From: Escherichia phage vB_EcoP_YF01
Strand: one strand, 5' to 3'
Sequence record: OQ025076.1
DNA length: 64,000 nucleotides
The notes beneath the pieces are model-generated. The model made no database searches. It saw only the letters and a list, made by a program, of their open reading frames with translations, and was not told the DNA's origin. Made by a program: the position numbers and the translations under genes. The first letter of the stretch is position 1; each line of letters begins with the position of its first letter. Positions 32,527 to 63,497 of this stretch are shown one piece after another.

Positions 32527-33369
32527 TTACCAAGATTTATCTAACCATGTCCAGTCGAACAGGTCTTCCGGAGTCTGACCAACAAAGAGAAGCCGAGCAT
32601 TCTCGAGCATCTTCTCTTCATCTTCAGTATCGAACTTCTTATAATATTCCATTCGTACTATATGATACATGGTCCACTTATCTGTAACACCAGCCAACAG
32701 TTTAGCTGCTGCTTTCTTCCCTATTCCTTGACGTCGAAGCTGGAGCTTACCACCCCACATAACTTCTTTACGTTCTCCACATCCGGGGATATTATCTGTA
32801 TCATCTCCAACCAGCATCTGATAGAAGAAATTTTGCCATGAAACTAAATCAGACACGTAGTGAGGGGGAACCTCTTTCTGTCTTTCTCCACAAGCCCAAC
32901 GATAATGCCATCCGGGAGTTATCAACAAATCTTTGTCTCTAGTACAGATGATAGTATTCTTATCTCTGCGTTGCCTTTCGGCTAGTGCATCGTCAGCCTC
33001 TCTCCCAAATACGTCTATGTATTCATATTTACCTTTAATATAATCGCCAACGTTTTGCCAGTGAAAAGGTCTTTCTCCGGGAGGTCTATTTGCTTTGTAG
33101 TCTTGCTGCTTAGCAACATCAAAACGGAAGTTACCACCTTCGCTGAAGTAGAACACAACCTTACTACAACCTGATCGAGCTATGATTGTATCAATCTTAT
33201 ACTGAAGTCGTTCAATCATGAAATTGTAATCAACTGGAACACGTCCTGTGTCAAGAAAGAGATGCTCCTGAGTAAGAGCACCCACTTCATATCGAAGAAC
33301 GTCAGCGTCCACTATAGCAACTTCAGGGAGCTTAACTTCTTCCATAAATATCATCCTGAGCTTGAGCAA
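32527..33369 (-). CDS. FEN-family 5'-3' exonuclease / flap endonuclease
   Basis: Motifs TRDKDLL and GDDTDNIPG...GIGKKAAAKLL (H3TH); true start may be an internal Met at 33354 or 33345. Confidence 0.75.
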   Translation of the reverse strand: MLKLRMIFMEEVKLPEVAIVDADVLRYEVGALTQEHLFLDTGRVPVDYNFMIERLQYKIDTIIARSGCSKVVFYFSEGGNFRFDVAKQQDYKANRPPGERPFHWQNVGDYIKGKYEYIDVFGREADDALAERQRRDKNTIICTRDKDLLITPGWHYRWACGERQKEVPPHYVSDLVSWQNFFYQMLVGDDTDNIPGCGERKEVMWGGKLQLRRQGIGKKAAAKLLAGVTDKWTMYHIVRMEYYKKFDTEDEEKMLENARLLFVGQTPEDLFDWTWLDKSW

Positions 33370-34221
33370 TAATCCAATCTAGATCTGACACTGCTGATTC
33401 AATAGTTGAGTCATTAAACAGTAGATATGTTTTTCTCTGTTCGCCTTCAATATATGAGCGAGAGTCTCCATCAAAAGAGCAACCATCTCTAAGAACTTGG
33501 ACAACTTGGACATGGAAATTCTTTTCTAGTTCTCGTACCTCTGCATTAAAACCTCCGTCAGTAAACATGACAATATCATCCTGACCTAGTCCTTCTTGTT
33601 TGATGCTTTTTACAGCAAGATTCCCCATATGGTTGTTGCCAAACATAGGTTTTAAGAAATCTTCACTTGTAGAAATCATCAAATCTCTTACAGACTTCCC
33701 TCCCCATTCTGGTCTAGGTTTTTCTTTCCATTCACGATCTTCATAGCGTGCTAGAAAGTTTTCTAGAGGTATTCCTAGTGCAGCAGCAGCTACTCTGTAC
33801 ATTGGCTCCTTGAAGGATTTGGTTGAATATCCATGGTGGTATGAATGGGCATTGACCCAAGCATTGGCTATCGTATCTTTACCACAACCCGGAGGCCCAT
33901 TAAGAATTACTACTAAAGGCTTATAGTGGGAATCTCCCACCATATTGGTCAGTGCTGGATTGCCTTGAGATTCCATTTCTAATTGCTCCGTGTGGTCATG
34001 TGAGTAGTCTACTGGAGAAGTTTTGTTACCAGTAACTTTAGGTAAAATCGCTCTAGTTGTTTCTACGTATTTACCGCCATCAACATTTATTTGAAACTCT
34101 ACAAGCTCATTCTGTAACTCATACCCTGATAAGTTGGATAGCTCCTCCAACTCATTTCTGACGAAATTTAAATGTTTGATTTTAATTGCAAGAGCTTTCT
34201 TTAAAGCTTTTACCTCTTCAT

Positions 34222-34231
<10 letters not shown>
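33332..34231 (-). CDS. dNMP kinase-like P-loop kinase with N-terminal coiled-coil extension
   Basis: P-loop ILNGPPGCGKDT; downstream blocks resemble T4 gp1 dNMP kinase (from memory). Confidence 0.6.
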
Positions 34232-35717
<1,486 letters not shown>

Positions 35718-35718
<1 letters not shown>

Positions 35719-43702: not shown

Positions 43703-44197
43703 TTAAAGCTCCTTTAAAGCGTGAAGTATTGCTGTGTGGCTGACACCAAACAACTTACCAAGACCTCTAGAGCCGAAATCCCTAGAACCCTTCACATACA
43801 TTTGTTTAACCTTTACAACATCTTCAGATGATAGTTTGGTAGCTGCATTATGGTCACGAGGCTTTCCAACATTCAAACCCGTATCAAATGCATGTCTCAT
43901 ATTTTCAGAAGGAGTCACCCATTCAAGATTCTCTATCCTGTTATCAGACTTAATTCCATTTATATGGTTTATCTCTGGATAGTTGTTAGGGTTGGGTATC
44001 AAATGTGTTGCTATAAGTCTGTGAGCTTTCCAATGCCTGCCCTCGAAAAAGATTCCTATATAACCCTTTCGGTTTATATGACCAGCTTCTTTGCCGGGAT
44101 GGCTCTTGTTCCACTTACGACCTCTTTCTGTAGACGAAGTAAAGAAAAGCTTTCCAGATGTTTCATCATAAGAAAGCCAACTTCTAATAGGAATCAC
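43703..44197 (-). CDS. HNH homing-type endonuclease with C-terminal HTH-like domain
   Basis: HRLIATHLIPNP...EINHINGIKSDNRIENLEWVTPSENMRHA. Confidence 0.7.
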   Translation of the reverse strand: MIPIRSWLSYDETSGKLFFTSSTERGRKWNKSHPGKEAGHINRKGYIGIFFEGRHWKAHRLIATHLIPNPNNYPEINHINGIKSDNRIENLEWVTPSENMRHAFDTGLNVGKPRDHNAATKLSSEDVVKVKQMYVKGSRDFGSRGLGKLFGVSHTAILHALKEL

Positions 44198-44514
44198 TGA
44201 CTCAGTGCTCCTTTTCGCTTAGCAGCTCCAGCTGCTTTTCCAGCTCGATCACCACTTTTGCCGCCGTTTGAACGGTTTGAGCTGACTGATTCAACACGTA
44301 AGTTGCTTGACGCATTAGAACCTCCAGACTTGACAGCTCGTTTGTGTCCAACATCTTTACCTCTGACAGCAGCTTTTCCATCGCGCTTTTCAACGATGCG
44401 ACGTGCACGGTGGCGCTGAGCATCTCCGCTCTTGCTCCCAATTCCCGTTTCACCACGCTTGATCGCAGTCCTTCTTTCTTGTGCATAATCTCTCTTTCCT
44501 ACATGATCTGCCAT
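44194..44514 (-). CDS. Basic K/R/G-rich hypothetical protein (an alternative overlapping frame 44202..44486 also exists)
   Basis: Strong RBS AAGGAG 6 nt before ATG 44514 and a TAATGTATA element 37 nt upstream; which frame is expressed is unresolved. Confidence 0.3.
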   Translation of the reverse strand: MADHVGKRDYAQERRTAIKRGETGIGSKSGDAQRHRARRIVEKRDGKAAVRGKDVGHKRAVKSGGSNASSNLRVESVSSNRSNGGKSGDRAGKAAGAAKRKGALSQ

Positions 44515-44550
44515 TTAAAACTCCTTAATATATCAGTGTACACTAAGGAG

Positions 44551-44559
44551 TATACATTA
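44551..44559 (-). promoter_or_regulatory. TAATGTATA promoter-like element (minus strand), 37 nt upstream of ATG 44514
   Basis: Plus-strand TATACATTA; followed on the minus strand by the perfect palindrome AGTGTACACT. Confidence 0.45.
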
Positions 44560-44570
44560 TAAGTTACTGT

Positions 44571-45308
44571 TTAAGCTTTCTTTTCCATTGCTTTAACAAT
44601 CGCCTTACAGAAACCAGAACGAACAATATCATCTGATTCACCATCTACAATCTCAGCAAACTCATACAGATCATGTTCATCAATAAAGTTAGTAGCCCAA
44701 GTTAGACCACTCTCGCGACCACGCATATCATGCTGGTTTGTATCACCCATACAGAACAATTGAGAGGTTTCTCCCAATCGAGTCATGATGGAGAAGGCTT
44801 CATCCTTAGTTGTGTTCTGGAACTCATCTACGATAACAATGGCATCATTGAAAGAGCGACCACGGAGATATTCCAGAGGTACAAATTCAATGTTACCATT
44901 TCCGATTTGGCATTCATAGAATCCCTTACCGTATCGCTGAGTAATAACATCAATGATAGGCATCAGGTATGGTTCAAACTTCTCACGCATTCCTCCCGGA
45001 AGTAGCCCAAGAGAATTTCCCATGCCAACCGAAGGGCGACTCAGAATGATCTTCTGAATCTTACCGCTCTTCAATGCATCAATAACTGTGGAAGTGATTA
45101 CAAAGGTCTTACCACAGCCCGCAGGAGCGTCTGTGAACACAACTTGCTTAGTCTTGATAGCGTTGAGTAGCTCAGACTGAAACTGGTTCTGAGGGACTAC
45201 AGGCTTTGCTAAAACCACCTCTTCAAACTCTCGCTTACCCTTACGAGTGACAAGTGCTTCCCGACGAAGGTCTTTCCGTGATTCTTTCCGTGATTGACGA
45301 CGACTCAT
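44571..45308 (-). CDS. phoH: PhoH-like ATPase
   Basis: Walker A DAPAGCGKTF and PhoH-type downstream blocks (IVIVDEFQNTT). Confidence 0.8.
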   Translation of the reverse strand: MSRRQSRKESRKDLRREALVTRKGKREFEEVVLAKPVVPQNQFQSELLNAIKTKQVVFTDAPAGCGKTFVITSTVIDALKSGKIQKIILSRPSVGMGNSLGLLPGGMREKFEPYLMPIIDVITQRYGKGFYECQIGNGNIEFVPLEYLRGRSFNDAIVIVDEFQNTTKDEAFSIMTRLGETSQLFCMGDTNQHDMRGRESGLTWATNFIDEHDLYEFAEIVDGESDDIVRSGFCKAIVKAMEKKA

Positions 45309-45490
45309 TTACGCTCTCCAATTTCTTCGTAATGACATTCAGTAGTTAAACAATCTTTACAGATTGCTGTATAAACCCTGACGTTAGTAAATCGTTTGTT
45401 CTTCCCTTTGGTTGGAGAGCCTTTGGCAAGCTCTCTGATAACCTTGTTACTTAAGTGAAGGTTTGTTCCTTCACATTTAGAGCACTTCAT
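45305..45490 (-). CDS. Small zinc-ribbon protein
   Basis: CSKCEG...CKDCLTTEC cysteine pairs; 61 aa. Confidence 0.4.
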   Translation of the reverse strand: MKCSKCEGTNLHLSNKVIRELAKGSPTKGKNKRFTNVRVYTAICKDCLTTECHYEEIGERK

Positions 45491-45806
45491 GGTTCATATC
45501 TTTATGAATCCTGTAAACAACTGTCGCCATACAAGCAACAGCCTCATTGTGTGGGAGATGCATCCCTGTAGAACCGTCCCAATCTTTGAACTCATTATCA
45601 AAGACTCCGGTAGGTTCTGGATAGAGGGCTTGCAACTCAACCAAATCGTTAGCAACTTGTTGCCATTTATCATCAGACCAGATAGGGTCATCCAACCAGT
45701 AATACAAATAGGAATGGATGATCAATTGCCTTCTATGCCGATTGATTACTTCAGCGGGACTTATCTCACTTCCATTTGAAGTCCTAAATGTATTACTGTC
45801 AATCAT
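45477..45806 (-). CDS. Small protein resembling the N-terminal Ia domain of NAD-dependent DNA ligase
   Basis: HSYLYYWLDDPIWSDDKWQQVANDLVELQALYPE parallels the LigA motif [32 protein letters not shown] (from memory); no adenylation domain follows. Confidence 0.4.
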   Translation of the reverse strand: MIDSNTFRTSNGSEISPAEVINRHRRQLIIHSYLYYWLDDPIWSDDKWQQVANDLVELQALYPEPTGVFDNEFKDWDGSTGMHLPHNEAVACMATVVYRIHKDMNHEVL

Positions 45807-45968
45807 TTCACAACCTTAAATTTGAATGTTGTTGGGTGATAATAATGCAACCTGTTGATGGTGTGCTTGATTTCAAGGTATGTCCTACAGGAGTGGCACA
45901 TAACATGAGACAAACCAGTAACAGGATTGGTCTTAAAATTGATGATAGGCTTCTCTTTCTTACAGAAG

Positions 45969-46202
45969 CTACAGACTTTCTTTTCCATCTTTTCTCCAGT
46001 GGTCAACGAATTGCTGAAACACTTTATGGTCGAATGTGAAACCGCGAGCAATCCCACACTCTACGAAAGTAGAAGGCATATAGTCTACATCATCTTTAGA
46101 TGTATGACCATAAACTTGAATAAGCTTTTTAATCTTATCCTTCTCTCTTCGAGGAAGCATTCTAAATGCCTCCTGAATATCTGTAATATGTTTGATTTTC
46201 AT
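45969..46202 (-). CDS. Hypothetical protein
   Basis: 77 aa ORF upstream of thyX; a small zinc-finger ORF (45803..45988) may follow it. Confidence 0.35.
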   Translation of the reverse strand: MKIKHITDIQEAFRMLPRREKDKIKKLIQVYGHTSKDDVDYMPSTFVECGIARGFTFDHKVFQQFVDHWRKDGKESL

Positions 46203-46218
46203 CAGAAAGCCTCTGATA

Positions 46219-46875
46219 TTAACTCTCCAAAGTTTTCTTCAGAGCTGCCCACGAGATTGGGTAGAGTTTAGCCATCTCTTCATCTAGAGATTTAGCAAAC
46301 ACTCGAACTTCATATTGAGCGTGAGAGGAGAGTCGCTGACGACACAACTCAAACCAGCCATACAAAGAACCGGTCCACACCCACTCAGTGATCATCCCCT
46401 GAGGAAGAACAAATCGAGCTTGCTCTGGTGCAATAAATTCAATCAACTTGTCATATGCTGCTAGAGAAGCTTCATATGAATCGTTAATCAGCATTAATGC
46501 TTCAGCTCGCTCTCCGTCGATGAGTTGAACCCCTGAACCTGCATGGAGGTCCGAAGGTCTCGCAAAAATCTCTTTAGGGATGAAGACTTCAACTGCTCCA
46601 TCTTTATACCGCCGGGACATTTCGTTCCACGAGAATCCAACCTGATGCTTGCCCAACTGTCTCGCAATTGCAATAGGTGCTTTGCATCGGAAACTGACTT
46701 GCGGGTGTCGGAATGGGGTAACATGCTTCTCTCTTGCGAGAAAGTTGATGAGACGTTCATCACGTTCATTTAAATCACCTTCACGGGTTACGCCAAAGGA
46801 AACTCGAGCTGCGTTTACTACGCTACGATCACTTCCCATAGCTTCAATTAATGTTGCTTGTAGTTGTTCATTCAT
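46219..46875 (-). CDS. thyX: FAD-dependent thymidylate synthase ThyX homologue with variant motif (KHQ in place of RHR)
   Basis: AARVSF, TPFRH, KAPIAIARQ, SWNEMSRRY and SHAQYE blocks align with ThyX; the RHR position reads KHQ. Confidence 0.8.
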   Translation of the reverse strand: MNEQLQATLIEAMGSDRSVVNAARVSFGVTREGDLNERDERLINFLAREKHVTPFRHPQVSFRCKAPIAIARQLGKHQVGFSWNEMSRRYKDGAVEVFIPKEIFARPSDLHAGSGVQLIDGERAEALMLINDSYEASLAAYDKLIEFIAPEQARFVLPQGMITEWVWTGSLYGWFELCRQRLSSHAQYEVRVFAKSLDEEMAKLYPISWAALKKTLES

Positions 46876-46890
46876 CCGTGAATATCCTTA

Positions 46891-47166
46891 TTACTTATTT
46901 CTCAGGGCTGTGTCCAAAAATGCTTTCAGGTTTGCTTCAGTCTGCATACCGGAGAGGCTGTAGTGTGCACCACTGTTACGGTCAGGCACAACGAAAGCAG
47001 GGATACTTCGTACACCATACTTAACAGCTTGTTCACGACCACCACCTTCAAGGATGTTAATCTCTTCCACTTCTACATCAAACTCCTTAACAACCTTCTC
47101 AAAGGTAGGAGCCATTGCTTTACATGGAGCACACTGATCACTATAAAACTTAATTACTTTAGACAT
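46891..47166 (-). CDS. Thioredoxin/glutaredoxin-like redoxin
   Basis: 91 aa with CAPC active-site motif near the N-terminus. Confidence 0.6.
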   Translation of the reverse strand: MSKVIKFYSDQCAPCKAMAPTFEKVVKEFDVEVEEINILEGGGREQAVKYGVRSIPAFVVPDRNSGAHYSLSGMQTEANLKAFLDTALRNK

Positions 47167-47174
47167 GTAAATCC

Positions 47175-47354
47175 TTATGCAGTCAGGAGGTGAAGCAGGA
47201 ATGGGATAACAACAGCTACGATAACCATGATAGTTGATGCTGTTTGAATCTCACCTTTCTTATCAGGAGTTTCTTCAATAAGCTTACCAGAAGCCCAATA
47301 AATACCACCACCAATAAAGATAGCCCAAATACCCCATACGATTGCTGATAACAT
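47175..47354 (-). CDS. Small membrane protein (59 aa)
   Basis: Own translation MLSAIVWGIWAIFIGGGIYWASG...MVIVAVVIPFLL; two hydrophobic segments; AAGGA RBS. Confidence 0.3.
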   Translation of the reverse strand: MLSAIVWGIWAIFIGGGIYWASGKLIEETPDKKGEIQTASTIMVIVAVVIPFLLHLLTA

Positions 47355-47416
47355 ATATCTATATCCTTATAAATAAGTTCGCCCCACCTCGGGTTAGGAG
47401 ACAGGGCGGAGGTTTT

Positions 47417-48028
47417 TTAGTAAGACACGTCACCACTTGAATGGGACATGTTGCTCTTGACGAAGTAGCAATACTTGCCAAGACCTTCATTAATTTCTTG
47501 AAGCATACTCTGATCGACAGGGTAGGTGGCTAAATCACCATCAAACTCATCCATCTTCTCAATAATACACATCAAAGTCATGCACATATCAGAGAGCATA
47601 CCATCCATGTCTAGATCAGCATTACCCTCTGAGAACCAAGCATGGGAGAGATAGTTAGCTGCTGTAGCATCCACTTTAACACAGTGGTAACGCATACGTT
47701 CAGCAATACGATCTCCTACCTGTCGTGCGTAATCTTCCAGCTCATCAAACATACCATGAACACCCTGAAATCCTGCACCAGAGACGTTCCAGTGGTAGTT
47801 TTTAGCTTTGATATGCAAGAGTTCCATGTTAGCTTGTAAGCAGCTCAGGATGTGTTCTAGGCTGTTTCCGCTAATCATACCCTGCATTGTTTCAAGGCGA
47901 GAGATTGATAGGTCGGACCGGTCTAACACGCTATAGCTGTCACGACCAATCTCAGGTAAATCAAAAACATTCTTATGCATTTGGGTTTTCTCCATCAAGT
48001 TCAACTGAGTTAGCAACGTTACGTGCAA
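47417..48028 (-). CDS. Dps-like ferritin-family protein
   Basis: KAKNYHWNVSGAGFQGVHGMFDELEDY...DRIAERM matches the Dps ferroxidase-region signature; true start probably an internal Met. Confidence 0.75.
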   Translation of the reverse strand: MHVTLLTQLNLMEKTQMHKNVFDLPEIGRDSYSVLDRSDLSISRLETMQGMISGNSLEHILSCLQANMELLHIKAKNYHWNVSGAGFQGVHGMFDELEDYARQVGDRIAERMRYHCVKVDATAANYLSHAWFSEGNADLDMDGMLSDMCMTLMCIIEKMDEFDGDLATYPVDQSMLQEINEGLGKYCYFVKSNMSHSSGDVSY

Positions 48029-48302
48029 TATTATCCATTACCTGCTGGGTAATTACGATGCAGTTCTGCGGGTCTACTGACTTAGAACGCCCCATTTCAG
48101 GGTCATACACCTTAACTCGCTTAGCAGTTGAGCCTGTAACCTGAAGAACCTTCAACAGATATCCCTGATTACCGATAGACCAAGCAACAACATCACGATT
48201 CTTGATAAAGCGACCAAGCATATCACGATGATAAAACTGTTGCATCACCTTGGATTTTGTAATCTCTTCAGTGGGCGGGGCCACTTTACTCAAATCTAAC
48301 AT
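47973..48302 (-). CDS. Hypothetical protein
   Basis: 109 aa; an AAATGTATA near-match to the promoter motif lies 40 nt upstream. Confidence 0.4.
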   Translation of the reverse strand: MLDLSKVAPPTEEITKSKVMQQFYHRDMLGRFIKNRDVVAWSIGNQGYLLKVLQVTGSTAKRVKVYDPEMGRSKSVDPQNCIVITQQVMDNIARNVANSVELDGENPNA

Positions 48303-48341
48303 AACTCTCTCCTGTAAAATACAAATTCTTATTGTACTCTA

Positions 48342-48350
48342 TATACATTT
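48342..48350 (-). promoter_or_regulatory. Near-match promoter-like element AAATGTATA (minus strand) flanked by a 9-bp inverted repeat
   Basis: Plus-strand TATACATTT; ATAACTCTC at 48301-48309 and GAGAGTTAT at 48351-48359 bracket it. Confidence 0.3.
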
Positions 48351-48374
48351 GAGAGTTATCATATCTACTACCAA

Positions 48375-48584
48375 TCAGTAGTAAATTACTTTAGACATAA
48401 AAGAACCAGTGTTAGGGTCTTCATACCAGCGATGTATGTCAGCGCTTTTTACTATTGTGCCCAGAGTCTTCAACTGTTTCTTAGCAATACGAGCCTCTTT
48501 GCGAGTGTCAAACAATTTGATGTTATCTTTTCTCATGTGTTGCTCAAGATCCCAAACAACATGAATAGCCCACATCTTTTTCAT
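48375..48584 (-). CDS. Small basic protein, tandem paralogue 3 of 3
   Basis: Shares a TR-x-(E/Q)-AR...K core and C-terminal (V/I)YY-type ending with the two upstream genes. Confidence 0.45.
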   Translation of the reverse strand: MKKMWAIHVVWDLEQHMRKDNIKLFDTRKEARIAKKQLKTLGTIVKSADIHRWYEDPNTGSFMSKVIYY

Positions 48585-48793
48585 TAGTAATGTACCTTTC
48601 CGCTGATATAAACACGACCAGAAGAATACTCCTTGGCCTTATGGATACTGATACTGTTGACCACGTCACCAGTAAGCATAGTCTTTTTAAAATCTCGAGC
48701 TTGTTGGCGAGTGGGGAGTGCAGTCATAGTCATGCCACCTGATGCCCACTTAATCTTTGCTAACCAAAATTGTCTCATAGTGATCGGTCTCAT
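48584..48793 (-). CDS. Small basic protein, tandem paralogue 2 of 3
   Basis: Same family as neighbours; abutting coding regions. Confidence 0.45.
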   Translation of the reverse strand: MRPITMRQFWLAKIKWASGGMTMTALPTRQQARDFKKTMLTGDVVNSISIHKAKEYSSGRVYISGKVHY

Positions 48794-48990
48794 TAATAAT
48801 AAACCTTACTGTTGGCAATAAAAGCACCTTCGCTATTCACAATAGCCCTTCCTAATGTAACCTTGTTAAGTCTAAAAGTAGACTTGTATTGATTTTTGAC
48901 CCTACGTGCGTGTTCTCGAGTCTTAACAAAATCTACAGCTACTAATTCTCCAGTCGTGTTATCATGTACACGAACAATCCACTTTTTCAT
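48793..48990 (-). CDS. Small basic protein, tandem paralogue 1 of 3
   Basis: Same family as neighbours. Confidence 0.45.
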   Translation of the reverse strand: MKKWIVRVHDNTTGELVAVDFVKTREHARRVKNQYKSTFRLNKVTLGRAIVNSEGAFIANSKVYY

Positions 48991-58792: not shown

Positions 58793-59896
58793 TTACAGCG
58801 CTTGCTCTAACTGATTTTCCAGATGATCTGGAATGTATCCTGTGATGTTGCTATCACTGTGACCTGACTCACGTAGCAAGTCAAAAATAGCACGGATACG
58901 TTGCTCTGGTGCAGATCGTACAGTAGATAGGTCAGTTGTACGAAGCATAACCAGAATCTCTTGGTACAAGTTGTTAGCGTTCCCTCGTACATATCCAAGG
59001 AATCCGTAGAAGTCTGAGATAAGACGTAAGTCAACAAGAACTTCTCCGTTGGAGTTGGTTCGACGTAAACGAATACGACCAGACTGCTCTACTCCATGAG
59101 AACGGCAATACAAAACATCACGGGCCATACAATACCCTGAATGCAAATCCGATTCGTCCAGATTGTAATCCAGAGGAAGGTAAGGAAGCATTGGGGCAAA
59201 TCGTACAGTATTTAAATGCTCAATAAACTGATCATTGCTCATCTCTGCGTTATCTAAAGCCAGCTTCTTCAACATCAAGAAGCGGTTAACCAGATTGAGA
59301 AGTTGACCACGTTTCCACTTAGGCTCACTGATACGGAACTCAATCGAACCGTATTGGGCAAGTGGCAGAAGGTTCAGAGATGTATATTTATCCCACGAAC
59401 GAACCAGACGGTTGAAGAACTCTTCATCGTCGTAGTTAAATGCGTCAGAGGCATTCATTACCTGTGCTTGTACCACTGCAAACGCAGGGCAGAAGTTGCT
59501 ACGGTAACGATGATAGCCTGAACACTTGAACAACACCTTTTCATAGAAGGTCCAAGCGAGAATGGTTTTCTTGAGGATATTACTATCAGCATCCCTCATA
59601 TCCATATGAACGTGAGTAGAGCAACGCCAAGTCCCCTCGGCGTGCGATTCAGCTACTGCTTCACTCAGGTTGTTGATAGCGTCTAACAACTCCTGTCCGT
59701 TGTAAGGTCGTGAACATACCATTTCACAACCATTACGCAGGGAACCATCCTCTGTACAATCCCACATATCTGCTTCGATATGATCGGAACCTTCGAGTTC
59801 AAGTTCAATACCGACACCGCACTGAAGTGCAATTGAACTATGCGCCTCAGTTAAACGACCTTCTCGATATCCAAAAGTTTGCGCTACAGTTGTCAT
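58793..59896 (-). CDS. Amidoligase-like (COOH-NH2 ligase) protein
   Basis: GVGIELELEG, TEDGSLRNGCEMVCSRP and STHVHMD resemble the phage amidoligase pattern as I recall it. Confidence 0.55.
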   Translation of the reverse strand: MTTVAQTFGYREGRLTEAHSSIALQCGVGIELELEGSDHIEADMWDCTEDGSLRNGCEMVCSRPYNGQELLDAINNLSEAVAESHAEGTWRCSTHVHMDMRDADSNILKKTILAWTFYEKVLFKCSGYHRYRSNFCPAFAVVQAQVMNASDAFNYDDEEFFNRLVRSWDKYTSLNLLPLAQYGSIEFRISEPKWKRGQLLNLVNRFLMLKKLALDNAEMSNDQFIEHLNTVRFAPMLPYLPLDYNLDESDLHSGYCMARDVLYCRSHGVEQSGRIRLRRTNSNGEVLVDLRLISDFYGFLGYVRGNANNLYQEILVMLRTTDLSTVRSAPEQRIRAIFDLLRESGHSDSNITGYIPDHLENQLEQAL

Positions 59897-60510
59897 AACG
59901 AATCCACCAACGTAATATTATAATTGCTAAGGTTTTCAGAGATGTGATGAAAATGCTCCAGAAGTCGCATCGGTTGTTGACCGTAAGAGTCACGAGGCGC
60001 TTCCAGATCTGCCTGACCTACCAGTGCACCTTTATAATGCACTTTACCATCTGTAGGATTGATGTAAATATAACGAGTAACCAATCCATCAAATTCAGGA
60101 TTGAACAGACTGTAAACCATTTCACCAGAGATAGAACGACCAATCCCCGGAGCGTTTCGAATCTTGTTACCCATCAAACCCTTCGCTCTCTGACGAACAG
60201 GGTTGATATGAGTCCAGCTTACAGTGTTACCATTATGGAACAGATAACCAACATCAGGTGATTCAAGAATCAAGGTTGGGTCAAACACTGGAATATTCAT
60301 CGTAGTGTTTCGGAGATTCCCATGCTCGTTCTTGTACCACTGCTCTACAACAAAATACAGAGCCTGTTCTGCTTCATGTGAGAAGTCATCGCTGCGGAAG
60401 TTACCGCTCTGCTCAACACCAATCACAAAACATGGAAGGTTGATATTACCTGCTCGTTTAGCAATCCATGTACCATTATAGTAATGAGAAAAATCAGCTA
60501 CTAAGCTCAC
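59893..60510 (-). CDS. Hypothetical protein (cluster member, unassigned)
   Basis: 205 aa; 4-nt overlap with the downstream amidoligase gene. Confidence 0.4.
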   Translation of the reverse strand: MSLVADFSHYYNGTWIAKRAGNINLPCFVIGVEQSGNFRSDDFSHEAEQALYFVVEQWYKNEHGNLRNTTMNIPVFDPTLILESPDVGYLFHNGNTVSWTHINPVRQRAKGLMGNKIRNAPGIGRSISGEMVYSLFNPEFDGLVTRYIYINPTDGKVHYKGALVGQADLEAPRDSYGQQPMRLLEHFHHISENLSNYNITLVDSL

Positions 60511-60519
60511 GATAACCTC

Positions 60520-61326
60520 TTATGCTACCTGAAGGAGTTTGATCTGCTGGTCAGCTTCTTTAACGTTGTTCCCGTTAATGATTTCATGAAGCTTCTCAAT
60601 CGGAAGGCGAGAGTGCAATGCCATCAGAGTGGACATGTCACACTGCTGAACAACCTTGTCAACCTGATCGTAAACAAACTTACGGTTTTCACGATCGCTA
60701 ATCCAGAAGTTAGACAGTGAACGGTATTCGATACCATAGTCTTTATAGCGGATTGCAGACGCTTTACCGTAGAGTTCTTTACGGCGAGTATCTTTGTCCA
60801 TAATTACTGCTGGGAGTGACAGGAAGTAGTCACACAGCACACCAAGCATCATCTGAGTTTGCAGAGTGATATCCAAAGCACCAACGACACCAAGATGTAC
60901 GTGACCACCGGCAGTACGAAGCCCCTTGTTCTGAGAAGTCGGGGATGGGTTTTTCTGACCAGTGAAAGCGTTGAAGTCAGGAGTGCATCCAAAGATGAAC
61001 GCTGATTCATTAAAGGTCTTCATCTCTTCTTCGGTGAAGATGTGAGAGCTGACACCCGGAGCTGTTTCCATATCCAGTTTGTTCAGGACATTGTTAGTAA
61101 GATCAATACCACGTTGCATGTTATCGTTAAACGCTTCAAAACCGCTCTGTGGGTCAATGTCAAACTCAGCCAGTACGTTGTCCTCTTGAAGACGAACATC
61201 CTTAGCCAGAGTGATCTTATCGTCCTTAGAACAGCCTAATAGACCAGCTACAGAGGTGATGATACCGTTGCTAGTACGAACGAACATTTCAGGGTCAGAG
61301 CCGATAAGGAATTTGCGCTTAGTCAT
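60520..61326 (-). CDS. Possible second COOH-NH2 ligase-like protein
   Basis: N-terminal acidic FLIGSDPEMF and later GGHVHLG (E...HxH arrangement); tentative. Confidence 0.35.
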   Translation of the reverse strand: MTKRKFLIGSDPEMFVRTSNGIITSVAGLLGCSKDDKITLAKDVRLQEDNVLAEFDIDPQSGFEAFNDNMQRGIDLTNNVLNKLDMETAPGVSSHIFTEEEMKTFNESAFIFGCTPDFNAFTGQKNPSPTSQNKGLRTAGGHVHLGVVGALDITLQTQMMLGVLCDYFLSLPAVIMDKDTRRKELYGKASAIRYKDYGIEYRSLSNFWISDRENRKFVYDQVDKVVQQCDMSTLMALHSRLPIEKLHEIINGNNVKEADQQIKLLQVA

Positions 61327-62290
61327 TGTAATACTCCACTAGTTCAGAAAAGAGAGATGAGATTGTGTTACCAACTTCTTCAGTAGTAAGGCCAGAGCTT
61401 GGGCCAGTACGTTGAATTAGTCGGGCGGTAAAGTTTTGTACTGTAATGTTTCCCAACTTGTCGTCTATTGATTCACGTTTGTGACCATAACAGTTGGACC
61501 AGAGTCTTAACCACTCTGACATTGTTTCATACTCGTCCGGGTCTTGATCTTTAGCACGAGCAAATCTTCGTAAGGCATCTTGGTTATGGTTACGAACATA
61601 ACCGTCCTTGTTGTCACCAACACCGAAGGGGTTTTGAACCCACACTTGCTTCGTATATTCATCAGAGTCTACAACCAAAGGAAGGAATGCTGCTGCTGAC
61701 ATATTGTTGTTAATAACAACAGATGTACTCTCGCTACTCCCATTGGCTCTTCCTCGTTGAGACCATCCACCGAAGAAGTCACGACCTAACCCAGCTAACA
61801 CTAGAGCGATACCGATGCGTTTACGCTTCAGCCACTCTTCCCTGTCTTCAATTCCTTCTGCTAGGAAATCCATTCCACGATATTGCCCTTCCAGAATACT
61901 GCGGAAGAGCATAAGTCCTGTGAAGATCTGATCTGCTGGATGCTCACGAAGGTTGACCGCGACACTATTCGCTGAAGTGATCGTAAATACGTCACGATAG
62001 CAAGACATAGAGTTCATAATGTCTGCTGTTTCAACCAAGTTCTTTTCAATTTCAGATGTAACATGACCATGAAAAGAGTGAGTCCAGTAATTCAACATCT
62101 CCAATTGCAAGTTGATATCACGGTTGAAGCGTCTATAACGCCCCTCTTCCGTGATAACTTCGCCATTAATATCGTTTACGCATTGGCCTTGCATGTAGTT
62201 GTGGATACCGAAGCATCCACGACCTAAGAACTTCTGTTCCCCTAAATCCTGTTGAAGATTCAGAGGTACGATCGTTGTGGAGATTGACAT
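61319..62290 (-). CDS. Hypothetical protein (cluster member, unassigned)
   Basis: 323 aa; 8-nt overlap with the downstream gene; no motif recognised. Confidence 0.4.
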   Translation of the reverse strand: MSISTTIVPLNLQQDLGEQKFLGRGCFGIHNYMQGQCVNDINGEVITEEGRYRRFNRDINLQLEMLNYWTHSFHGHVTSEIEKNLVETADIMNSMSCYRDVFTITSANSVAVNLREHPADQIFTGLMLFRSILEGQYRGMDFLAEGIEDREEWLKRKRIGIALVLAGLGRDFFGGWSQRGRANGSSESTSVVINNNMSAAAFLPLVVDSDEYTKQVWVQNPFGVGDNKDGYVRNHNQDALRRFARAKDQDPDEYETMSEWLRLWSNCYGHKRESIDDKLGNITVQNFTARLIQRTGPSSGLTTEEVGNTISSLFSELVEYYND

Positions 62291-62300
62291 AACTAACCTT

Positions 62301-63497
62301 TTATTTTCCTAAAAATAATCCGCTCATAACACCATCCCACTCAGAGGACGGAATCACTGAATACTCCGAACTTTGGTCCAGAGTCCCACTACTAAATCGC
62401 TGAACAATGTTGTAGATGTTGAACAGGTCTTTAGTCTCAGCACGAATGCCGTAGATTAGCCTGTTAGTTGTTCTCTCATTTTTAGACACGCGACGAGTAA
62501 AGTTGATCAGAAGGTTGTCACATTTCAGGATTTCTGATTCACTCTCTACTAAATCAGGGTGCATCACCGGCAAGAACATTGAGTTATTGACTCGTAATTC
62601 TGCTGTTTCATCATTCTCATAATGAATCCACTTAAAGTCTTCATCACGGAAGTGACCACACCCATCTCTGTATGACTGTTGACGCCAAGGCACTTGAAAT
62701 GCTTCAGCATATTTATCAGCCATACCAACCGTAAACAACGACGCTGGGAAGATACAAGCATCCCAATCGTTACCAACCAGAGTTGCTTTCGTTTCACCCA
62801 AGAGGTTAGTGTAAGTGCTAACCATTCGGGAATAAACGTAAGCCTGAAGGATTGTCCAGCCTTCAACCAACCATTTATGAAGGAAGGTTTCAACTTGACT
62901 CTCTTCATCTTCACAATAGAAGGTTCGATCTAACATCAAATAGAACAGACAACGATCAGCAGGAACATTCTCAGTTGCTACCCCCATAAAACCTTTCTCG
63001 TGCCAGCGTAAACAGGAGGGACGATCTTTGTCCACAAATGCTTCCATAGCTTCCAGTACAGCACGAGGTGTAGTTCGATATTCAGGGTTTTTGTCGTTCC
63101 AACGTTCGATATTATTTTTAAGCTCGCCTTCGTAGTCAATAGCACCCCAACCTAAAGCTGCGGATACAGGCTTTTCGTCACGCCAACGTCTAAAACCTAA
63201 CATCTTCATGTGAGTTCCGGAGTTCCAGATATGCTTGATTTTACACATATCCATCTCTCGGCTTAACAGGAACTCTTCCCCATCAGCACTACGAACGTTA
63301 GCTTCTTCATGCCACACTCGAACGTGCATATTCCACCCATGAGTTGCCTCATACATGTTAGGGTCGAAGTAGTCATCATATTCGTCATCGTCTTCATCAA
63401 CGCCACCGTTATAGTTGCGAAGCTGAAGGAACCCATAACAAGGAGGGTTGACCGTTAAAACATTACCTTCAGTATCTTCTAATGTTACTGGAAACAT
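62301..63497 (-). CDS. Hypothetical protein (cluster member, unassigned)
   Basis: 398 aa; acidic N-terminal region; no motif recognised by eye. Confidence 0.4.
   Translation of the reverse strand: MFPVTLEDTEGNVLTVNPPCYGFLQLRNYNGGVDEDDDEYDDYFDPNMYEATHGWNMHVRVWHEEANVRSADGEEFLLSREMDMCKIKHIWNSGTHMKMLGFRRWRDEKPVSAALGWGAIDYEGELKNNIERWNDKNPEYRTTPRAVLEAMEAFVDKDRPSCLRWHEKGFMGVATENVPADRCLFYLMLDRTFYCEDEESQVETFLHKWLVEGWTILQAYVYSRMVSTYTNLLGETKATLVGNDWDACIFPASLFTVGMADKYAEAFQVPWRQQSYRDGCGHFRDEDFKWIHYENDETAELRVNNSMFLPVMHPDLVESESEILKCDNLLINFTRRVSKNERTTNRLIYGIRAETKDLFNIYNIVQRFSSGTLDQSSEYSVIPSSEWDGVMSGLFLGK

Follow-up and report, generated by a model that had tools for sequence, protein, structure and literature searches.

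The thyX gene and its surroundings

The window, that is, the whole 64,000-nucleotide stretch of Escherichia phage vB_EcoP_YF01 analysed here (OQ025076.1), carries on its minus strand a gene for a flavin-dependent thymidylate synthase homolog, whose coordinates are given in Table 1 together with those of its sites and of the neighbors discussed below. The open reading frame is intact, begins with ATG and translates into a product of 218 amino acids, and its start codon is preceded, at 9 nt, by an AAGGA ribosome-binding site. The product matched Pfam Thy1 (PF02511) with an E-value of 4.5e-43 and 147.7 bits (cut-off 24.8) over residues 8-206, a full-length match covering positions 1-190 of the 191 in the profile, and it scored 129.6 bits against the NCBIfam thyX equivalog TIGR02170, whose cut-off is 87.9. 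Thy1 was the only family matched in Pfam, and the protein does not qualify as a member of the ThyA (Thymidylat_synt) family. Among solved sequences, the best HMMER match was PDB 6j61 (E 4e-31, residues 8-215), and Thermotoga maritima (Tm) ThyX was found at E 1e-24. The AF2 model reached a pLDDT of 94.9 and a pTM of 0.89, and its top Foldseek matches in the PDB were all T. maritima ThyX, with TM scores of 0.78-0.82 and a probability of 1.00. By curated HMMs, predicted fold and catalytic residues, the phage protein belongs to the ThyX family.

Table 1. Positions in the window of thyX, of its sites and of the genes considered with it
Feature	Position	Strand	Basis
thyX, predicted flavin-dependent thymidylate synthase, 218 aa, K-H-x / X8 / SRRY subfamily	46219..46875	(-)	Pfam, NCBIfam, PDB matches, AF2
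ThyX signature block ARQLGKHQVGFSWNEMSRRY, aa 71-90: R72, Q73, K76-H77-Q78, G80, E85, S87, R88, R89, Y90	46606..46665	(-)	translation, alignments
Codons AAG CAT CAG = K76 H77 Q78, equivalent to T. maritima R78 H79 R80	46642..46650	(-)	sequence read, alignment
Loop after SRRY, aa 100-114, PKEIFARPSDLHAGS, equivalent of PolB 'Loop 1'	46534..46578	(-)	alignments
dCTP deaminase (Dcd), presumed upstream supplier of dUTP	48991..49524	(-)	Pfam DCD E 3.5e-34; TIGR02274 107.7 bits vs 92.8
Deoxynucleoside monophosphate (dNMP) kinase ORF, putative dTMP to dTDP step	33332..34231	(-)	PHROG 139 E 9.1e-55
Thioredoxin-fold protein, immediately upstream of thyX in the same direction, neighbor only	46891..47166	(-)	Pfam Thioredoxin E 4.4e-13

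Between positions 44000 and 50000 the window shows 96-98% nucleotide identity with Kuravirus/Gordonclarkvirinae podophages that infect E. coli and Shigella, among them SGF2, YW01, Bas91, SU10 and about 90 others. The annotated gene order of Bas91 matches that of the window and runs through PhoH, a stand-alone NAD-ligase Ia domain, thyX, a thioredoxin-fold protein, a Dps/ferritin-like protein, three small paralogs, dCTP deaminase, a nucleotidyltransferase, a 3'-5' exonuclease subunit and a primase/helicase; the domains of the neighboring genes were confirmed in the window itself by domain searches. Beyond the primase/helicase, at 53410-63497 and 6.5-16.6 kb from thyX, lies a phiEco32-type amidoligase cluster, which encodes a GGACT-type cyclotransferase, a class-II glutamine amidotransferase, an Amidoligase_2, a COOH-NH2 ligase type 2 and unknowns. 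The window also has an HNH-type ORF at 43703-44197 that is missing from most relatives. The Bas91 ortholog of the dNMP kinase ORF is annotated as a dNMP kinase, and the true start codon of this ORF may be further in. When we searched the window by tblastn, with E. coli ThyA and a dUTPase (Dut) as query sequences, no homologs of either were detected.

Among Kuravirus thyX orthologs, dN/dS ranges from 0.04 to 0.16, with dS up to saturation, and the phage gene is under strong purifying selection. As thyX is already annotated in dozens of near-identical phage genomes, there is nothing new in the gene itself, and the novelty, which is modest, lies in the description of the subfamily it belongs to.

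A ThyX subfamily with the K-H-x motif

The plus strand reads ctgatgctt at the motif codons, the reverse complement of AAG CAT CAG, and in the HMMER alignments the encoded K76, H77 and Q78 are aligned with R78, H79 and R80 of T. maritima ThyX and with the RHR of PDB 6j61. Translation, these alignments and the end-to-end Thy1 match thus bear out the initial annotation, which had described a ThyX homolog with KHQ in place of RHR. Relative to both reference proteins, the phage ThyX has a one-residue insertion before the conserved Ser, giving a spacer of X8 and not X7, and it carries SRRY where the classical SGRY stands, with Arg (R88) at the position of Tm Gly89. Where the literal signature is R-H-R-X7-S (Myllykallio 2002, as quoted in PMC2826268), the phage protein reads K-H-Q-X8-S.

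The residues of the RHR motif form hydrogen bonds with the FAD AMP phosphate, the FMN phosphate and the ribityl, the first Arg additionally contacts the isoalloxazine and dUMP, and Mtb R190 is assigned to FAD phosphate/ribityl contacts beside Mtb R95, H96 and R97 (PMC6514825). Given these contacts, the role in substrate and flavin binding that the initial annotation had ascribed to the motif is essentially right. Ulmer et al. (2008) reportedly defined a motif, to which the R-H-R residues belong, that the M. tuberculosis enzyme cannot do without. Of the three classical FAD-phosphate arginines the phage ThyX lacks two, Tm R80 being replaced by Q78 and Tm R165 (Mtb R190) by Tyr172, K76 and H77 keep the kind of residue found at Tm R78 and H79, and a new conserved arginine, R88, is added. 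All of the dUMP-binding/catalytic set is kept, namely H51, R72, Q73, E85, S87, R89, Y90, R154 and R181, corresponding to Tm H53, R74, Q75, E86, S88, R90, Y91, R147 and R174. The near-invariant R88 would be a likely substitute contact for flavin or nucleotide phosphates.

To see how widespread the substitution is, we turned to the homologs. In the 120 closest, taken as 90%-identity cluster representatives with 53-92% identity to the phage protein and coming from Kuravirus, Chaseviridae, 7-11-like and other phages and from metagenomes, the motif is KHQ in 119 and KSQ in one. Chance or a sequencing artefact was rejected as the origin of KHQ on this result. When 1.84 billion cluster representatives were searched exhaustively with HMMER, 6,886 ThyX-like clusters were retrieved at E <= 1e-3, and residues and motifs were counted in the best 150 of these (50%-identity cluster representatives, 38-57% identity). 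Here KHQ is found in 68, KHK in 11, RHT in 8, KHT and RST in 4 each, and RHR in a single one, and the spacer is one residue longer (X8) in all 150. The position of Tm R78 stays basic (K 119, R 29) and that of Tm H79 is His in 132 and Ser in 15, while the position of Tm R80 varies (Q 85, T 18, K 17, V 7, H 6, R 4). Moreover, Arg occupies the Tm G89 position in 142 of the 150, Arg or His the Tm N169 position in 121, and hydrophobic residues replace the arginine of Tm R165. Nearly invariant, in Tm numbering, are S30 (144 of 150), H53 (146), R74 (133), Q75 (141), E86 (148), S88 (149), R90 (148), Y91 (149), E144 (149), R147 (150), R174 (150) and Q180 (149), and the phage ThyX holds every one of them. 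In these alignments the subfamily signature is [K/R]-[H/S]-x-[V/I]-G-x3-[N/S]-E-x-S-R-R-Y, as against the classical R-H-R-X7-S-x-R-Y. The third motif position is, by the same counts, no longer constrained in the subfamily, and the first basic residue is kept, here as Lys.

A mixed alignment shows what lies between the two signatures. RHR-X7-S(G/A/Q)RY is found in T. maritima, Thermus phage G20c and cyanophage S-B68; RHR-X8-SGRY in the actinophages LinStu (a mycobacteriophage) and R4 (a Streptomyces phage); RHR-X8-SRRY in Petrotogaceae bacteria; RHT-X8-SRRY in a giant-virus contig; KHK-X8-SRRY in a Rheinheimera phage and a Klebsiella Schitoviridae (N4-like) phage; and KHQ-X8-SRRY in vB_EcoP_YF01 and its clade. 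The existence of these intermediate types points to a stepwise drift of the motif inside one homologous family.

The loop that follows SRRY is a further point of difference. Its subfamily consensus is P-x-x-W-R-x-R-x4-K-Q-G-S, with R in 139, K in 139 and Q in 144 of the best 150 representatives, and the phage ThyX departs from it at F104, H111 and A112. The departure is specific to the Kuravirus/Chaseviridae/7-11-like clade; the substrate-recognition peptide E85-x-S87-R88-R89-Y90 is intact in the phage protein. The X8 spacer, SRRY, Tyr172 at the Tm R165 position and the lost W-R...K-Q-G-S loop are all additions to what the initial annotation had noticed.

Moreover, we looked for KHQ-type genes in prokaryotic genomes, each species being represented by one. 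Of the 80 loci retrieved, 47 have KHQ, which is no unbiased frequency, as the search pattern itself contained KHQ, and many of the matches resemble prophages or mis-binned phage contigs. Several KHQ thyX genes are clearly in chromosomal housekeeping contexts, however, in Spirochaetia, Chloroflexota, Nitrospinaceae and Poribacteria. On a complete Spirochaetia chromosome of 1.79 Mb, genes for citrate synthase, an aldo/keto reductase and an SDR precede it, and its other flank holds those for dihydroorotate dehydrogenase (pyrD) and OMP decarboxylase/OPRT (pyrF/pyrE). In Chloroflexota/Dehalococcoidia MAGs it adjoins 2-oxoacid dehydrogenase E1/E2 genes, in Nitrospinaceae it is flanked by an AcrB/HlyD pump and IspH/MlaA, and in Poribacteria by an enolase-superfamily gene and an aminotransferase gene. 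Synteny at these loci is retained among independent MAGs within each lineage, and in Chloroflexota it persists with flanking orthologs at only ~50-58% identity, which argues for a long vertical inheritance in cells. The idea that KHQ is an oddity of phages only was rejected on these syntenic chromosomal copies.

The chromosomal proteins share with the phage ThyX 40-47% identity and the signature K-H-Q-[V/I]-G...S-R-R-Y, and they likewise exceed the TIGR02170 equivalog cut-off. They differ from it in sitting among housekeeping genes and not in a phage genome, and in keeping the W-R-x-R...K-Q-G-S loop, whose motif the Kuravirus clade has lost. Since thyA and thyX are largely mutually exclusive, the bacterial proteins are very probably the thymidylate synthases of their cells. 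The nearest relatives of the Spirochaetia ThyX are mostly metagenomic contigs, many of them ~43 kb long, and a cultured organism of known thyA absence was not found among them.

Taken by its distribution, KHQ is what a large and ancient subfamily of ThyX normally carries, and no private oddity of this phage. The subfamily with K/R-H/S-x, X8 and SRRY is prominent among phage ThyX genes and is also chromosomal in bacteria, and the R-H-R-X7-S pattern is too narrow for the family because this whole subfamily, chromosomal bacterial genes included, fails it. The textbook signature, held to be universal, needs correcting accordingly. Earlier ThyX surveys excluded such sequences through motif-based filters; particularly, the phylogenetic survey of Stern et al. 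(2010) discarded sequences deviating from RHRX7S (PMC2826268). No assay, complementation or crystallisation of a K-H-x ThyX, and no report of complementation by a phage thyX, was found in the searchable literature. ThyX is an antibacterial drug target.

Function of the phage enzyme

From homology, fold, residue conservation, purifying selection and the distribution of the motif we infer, with a probability of about 0.85, that this Kuravirus-type E. coli phage has a flavin-dependent thymidylate synthase of the ordinary kind, with dTMP-synthase activity. A working enzyme would convert dUMP, CH2-THF and NADPH into dTMP and THF. In the pathway that the gene content suggests, the phage dCTP deaminase would turn dCTP into dUTP, the host dUTPase (Dut) would yield dUMP, the phage ThyX would make dTMP, and the phage dNMP kinase together with the host NDP kinase would bring it to dTTP. 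The G+C content of the window is 42.5% and that of E. coli is roughly 51%; such a pathway would raise the supply of thymidylate for the phage genome in its host, with no need for DHFR. Most likely, then, the enzyme follows the phage dCTP deaminase and provides an AT-rich phage with dTMP, although an unrecognised DNA modification would fit the restriction resistance of the Gordonclarkvirinae (PMC11990801), and this counts against so ordinary a reading. Also on that side are the loss of the arginines at Tm R80 and R165, the reported importance of the R-H-R motif in M. tuberculosis ThyX, and the departure of the Kuravirus clade from the W-R...K-Q-G-S loop of its own subfamily.

The substitutions need not be neutral, even if the reaction is the same. 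The K-H-x / SRRY subfamily might bind flavin differently from the ThyX enzymes of solved structure, which could alter how tightly FAD binds or how it is exchanged, which flavin is preferred, or the competition of NADPH and folate for the site; we consider this a possible but rather unlikely reading of the alignments. It draws on the loss of two pyrophosphate-binding arginines with the gain of Arg88, and on the residue counts given above, in which the Tm R80 site is variable, the Tm R165 site hydrophobic, Tm G89 mostly Arg and Tm N169 mostly Arg or His; RHR and Mtb R190 are residues assigned to the FAD phosphates and ribityl (PMC6514825). Consistent with it as well, a HMMER search against solved structures found no PDB ThyX belonging to the K-H-x subfamily. 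On the other hand, PDB 6j61, which has the canonical RHR, is also without an equivalent of Tm R165, which shows that even classical ThyX enzymes do not all have this arginine, and Lys76 retains the charge where the isoalloxazine and dUMP are touched. Some rewiring of the cofactor-phosphate contacts in the subfamily is a reasonable supposition from these residues, and the first structure of a member would reveal what grips the flavin phosphates once two of the three classical arginines are gone.

Altered substrate or product chemistry, which the initial annotation had raised on account of KHQ, found no support, as KHQ predominates in a very large subfamily, chromosomal KHQ genes occur in four bacterial lineages, and the dUMP-binding and catalytic residues are conserved. 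In such a neofunctionalised ThyX the product could be 5-hydroxymethyl-dUMP, or dCMP or, as in PolB, UMP could be methylated, and the product would feed a DNA modification behind the restriction resistance of the Gordonclarkvirinae. We judge this very improbable. In its favor are the encoded dCTP deaminase and dNMP kinase, and the loop of Kuravirus/Chaseviridae that departs from the subfamily at the equivalent of PolB Loop 1; in PolB, Loop 1 and the substrate-recognition peptide gate the choice and entry of the substrate (PMC5003785). Nevertheless, the phage enzyme conserves the Arg that reads uracil (Tm R174) and, Tyr included, the entire E-x-S-R-R-Y peptide, and T. maritima ThyX, from which the W-R...K-Q-G-S motif is wholly absent, is a normal dTMP synthase. 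Also against it, genes for a dTMPase, a ThyA inhibitor or 5-hmdU processing were not recognisable, KHQ is common to the chromosomal bacterial enzymes, and phiEco32 DNA is cuttable and clonable, since the termini of this phage were mapped via restriction profiling and subcloning (PMC9965538).

The initial annotation had also tied the motif to the adjacent dCTP deaminase and to a modification cluster. The cluster meant is probably the amidoligase set described above, which has no known nucleotide link: domain searches of the window found no nucleotide-related domain in it, and the tie was rejected, there being no domain or context evidence connecting the cluster with ThyX or with nucleotides. 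The BASEL authors report that restriction-modification systems have remarkably little effect on the Gordonclarkvirinae, in which no modification pathway is known, and they speculate on dU-DNA, pointing to Dcd and the nucleotidyltransferase (PMC11990801). The neighboring 'nucleotidyltransferase' is a weak match to the head domain of poly(A)-polymerase/CCA-adding enzymes. We did not retain the dU-DNA idea in view of this weak match and of a thyX that is conserved and selected; together with the cuttability of phiEco32 DNA, these observations argue against dU replacing T and also against heavy hypermodification. Known thymidine hypermodification pathways begin with a ThyA-family enzyme (PMC8989533). 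That the K-H-Q site and the remodelled gating loop yield a different pyrimidine nucleotide which underlies the restriction resistance has, in our estimate, a very slim chance of being right. The phage flopper is by its record a member of Chaseviridae/Carltongylesvirus and not a Wifcevirus; its use as a restriction-sensitive Wifcevirus arguing against a modification role was dropped on that account.

Finally, an inactive relic or pseudoenzyme, in which the loss of RHR killed catalysis and left a non-catalytic or decaying gene, is suggested by the deviation from the literal signature and is scarcely credible in the face of the low dN/dS (0.04-0.16) and the intact catalytic and dUMP-binding set, on which a pseudogene was rejected, as well as of KHQ in 119 of 120 homologs down to 53% identity, the stable chromosomal synteny in bacteria and the very high-confidence AF2 model. 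The preferred reading, an ordinary thymidylate synthase, agrees better with the other option of the initial annotation, benign divergence, which can be refined to an old, subfamily-wide and probably compensated change. The alignment it had proposed as a check, to see whether KHQ is common among ThyX enzymes, came out in favor of benign divergence as far as sequence and genome context reach (119 of 120 close homologs; 68 of the best 150).

Comparison with known ThyX enzymes

Compared with the annotated ThyX of Kuravirus phages (SGF2, YW01, Bas91, SU10 and the phiEco32 group), the gene has the same synteny and shows no difference of substance. The protein is 99.5% identical to that of Shigella phage SGF2, 98.6% to that of phage PH444 and 96.8% to that of YW01, and the Bas91 ThyX differs from it at 3 of 218 residues.

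T. maritima ThyX (TM0449; PDB 1O26, 1KQ4 and many mutants) is the mechanistic reference, with the same fold (TM 0.8) at ~33% identity. Both proteins have, in Tm numbering, H53, R74, Q75, H79, E86, S88, R90, Y91, E144, R147, R174, H178 and Q180, and both are without the W-R...K-Q-G-S loop consensus. From T. maritima to the phage the differences are R78/K76, R80/Q78, G89/R88, R165/Y172, N169/E176 and E58/R56, and the motif block of the former, ARQWFRHRIA-SYNELSGRY, has one residue fewer than that of the phage in the stretch from RHR to the Ser of the catalytic site. PDB 6j61 has the same block structure as the phage ThyX and differs in its canonical ARQWFRHRTA-SVNEISGRY, its R-x-Q...N-K-Q-A-S loop and its length of 270 aa.

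PolB (SVIThyX2 of Streptomyces, PDB 4P5A), a ThyX paralog with methylase activity on both UMP and dUMP, is of one family with the phage protein (E 3.7e-16) and is an example of how the loops after the peptide can retune substrate choice with the chemistry unchanged (PMC5003785). Its specificity rests on Tyr124 and Tyr126 of Loop 1 (PMC5003785), whereas the phage loop, PSDLHAGSGVQLIDGE, is without tyrosine, and aa 100-122 of the phage ThyX, the equivalent loop region, contain no Tyr at all. PolB is encoded in an antibiotic (nucleoside-antibiotic) gene cluster, whereas the phage thyX stands in a module of replication and nucleotide metabolism.

Chromosomal ThyX proteins of the KHQ type

Our scan of one genome per prokaryotic species placed KHQ-type thyX genes, in which KHQ stands for the RHR motif, in a chromosomal and syntenic setting on genome contigs of Spirochaetia, Chloroflexota/Dehalococcoidia, Nitrospinaceae and Poribacteria (loci L007, L008, L012, L013, L011, L022, L024, L019, L025, L044, L080, L026 and L027). 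The Spirochaetia gene is adjoined by pyrD and pyrF/pyrE, and that of Chloroflexota by 2-oxoacid dehydrogenase genes. The closest relatives of the Spirochaetia protein lie mainly on metagenomic contigs, many of them of about 43 kb, which are possibly phage genomes; this hints at a transfer of the Spirochaetia gene from phage to cell.

Restriction resistance and the genes around thyX

Members of the Gordonclarkvirinae, the group of vB_EcoP_YF01, were reported to be remarkably resistant to restriction-modification systems, and neither a modification pathway nor a restriction inhibitor is known for them (PMC11990801). The authors of that study speculated that the DNA of these phages contains dU (PMC11990801), an idea that fits poorly with the conservation of thyX and the purifying selection acting on it. 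The phage also carries a phiEco32-type amidoligase cluster, listed below with the other features.

Coordinates of the features considered in this part
Feature	Position	Strand
SLOG/YAcAr-domain protein	34222-34614	-
Macro-domain protein	35278-35718	-
HNH-type ORF, 164 aa	43703-44197	-
Stand-alone Nlig-Ia protein, 109 aa	45477-45806	-
ThyX loop, aa 100-114, IFARPSDLHAGS	46534-46578	-
Ferritin/Dps-like protein	47417-48028	-
Three small ORFs (69, 69 and 65 aa)	48375-48990	-
"Nucleotidyltransferase", 456 aa, adjoining Dcd	49534-50904	-
phiEco32-type amidoligase cluster	53410-63497	-
GGACT cyclotransferase, amidoligase cluster	53410-53829	-
Class-II glutamine amidotransferase, amidoligase cluster	56683-58635	-
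Amidoligase_2, amidoligase cluster	58793-59896	-
COOH-NH2 ligase type 2, amidoligase cluster	60520-61326	-
Three further conserved proteins, amidoligase cluster (PHROGs 4877, 13102, 13063)		

Beside Dcd, the dCTP deaminase, the nucleotidyltransferase gave a single, weak Pfam signal, to the head domain of poly(A) polymerases and CCA-adding enzymes (E 2.5e-4), and matches PHROG 12715 over nearly its whole length. A role as an RNA or tRNA nucleotidyltransferase is more probable for it than one in DNA modification.

Several other neighbors were observed. Between the Dps-like gene and Dcd lie the three small ORFs, arranged back-to-back in tandem, each basic, with an internal K/R-rich stretch and Y-Y or H-Y at the end; they look like paralogues. 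The gene between that of thioredoxin and these small ORFs codes for the ferritin/Dps-like protein, which matches Pfam Ferritin (E 2.9e-7), is annotated as "DNA-binding protein" in relatives and is an uncommon cargo for a phage. The Nlig-Ia protein consists entirely of that domain of NAD+-dependent DNA ligase (E 8.3e-35) and lacks the catalytic domains, yet it is called "DNA ligase" in relatives. The HNH-type ORF, also present in phage YW01, is probably a mobile insertion, although coverage across relatives supports this only in part: in most relatives other than YW01, the alignment to the 44000-50000 query begins only about 225 nt in. In the related phage XT18, an HNH gene immediately abuts thyX. 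Elsewhere, the Macro-domain and SLOG/YAcAr genes, annotated in relatives as "phosphatase" and "GTP-binding domain", respectively, adjoin those of the phage sigma factor and dNMP kinase.

The ThyX loop after SRRY

The subfamily consensus for this loop, W-R-x-R-x4-K-Q-G-S, is gone from the Kuravirus/Chaseviridae/7-11-like clade. In the phage protein, F104, H111 and A112 replace R, K and Q, each of which is found in 139-144 of the 150 representatives of the 50%-identity clusters. The loop is the counterpart of Loop 1 of PolB, the Streptomyces paralogue that methylates UMP and dUMP, and ThyX of T. maritima likewise lacks the W-R-x-R-x4-K-Q-G-S motif.
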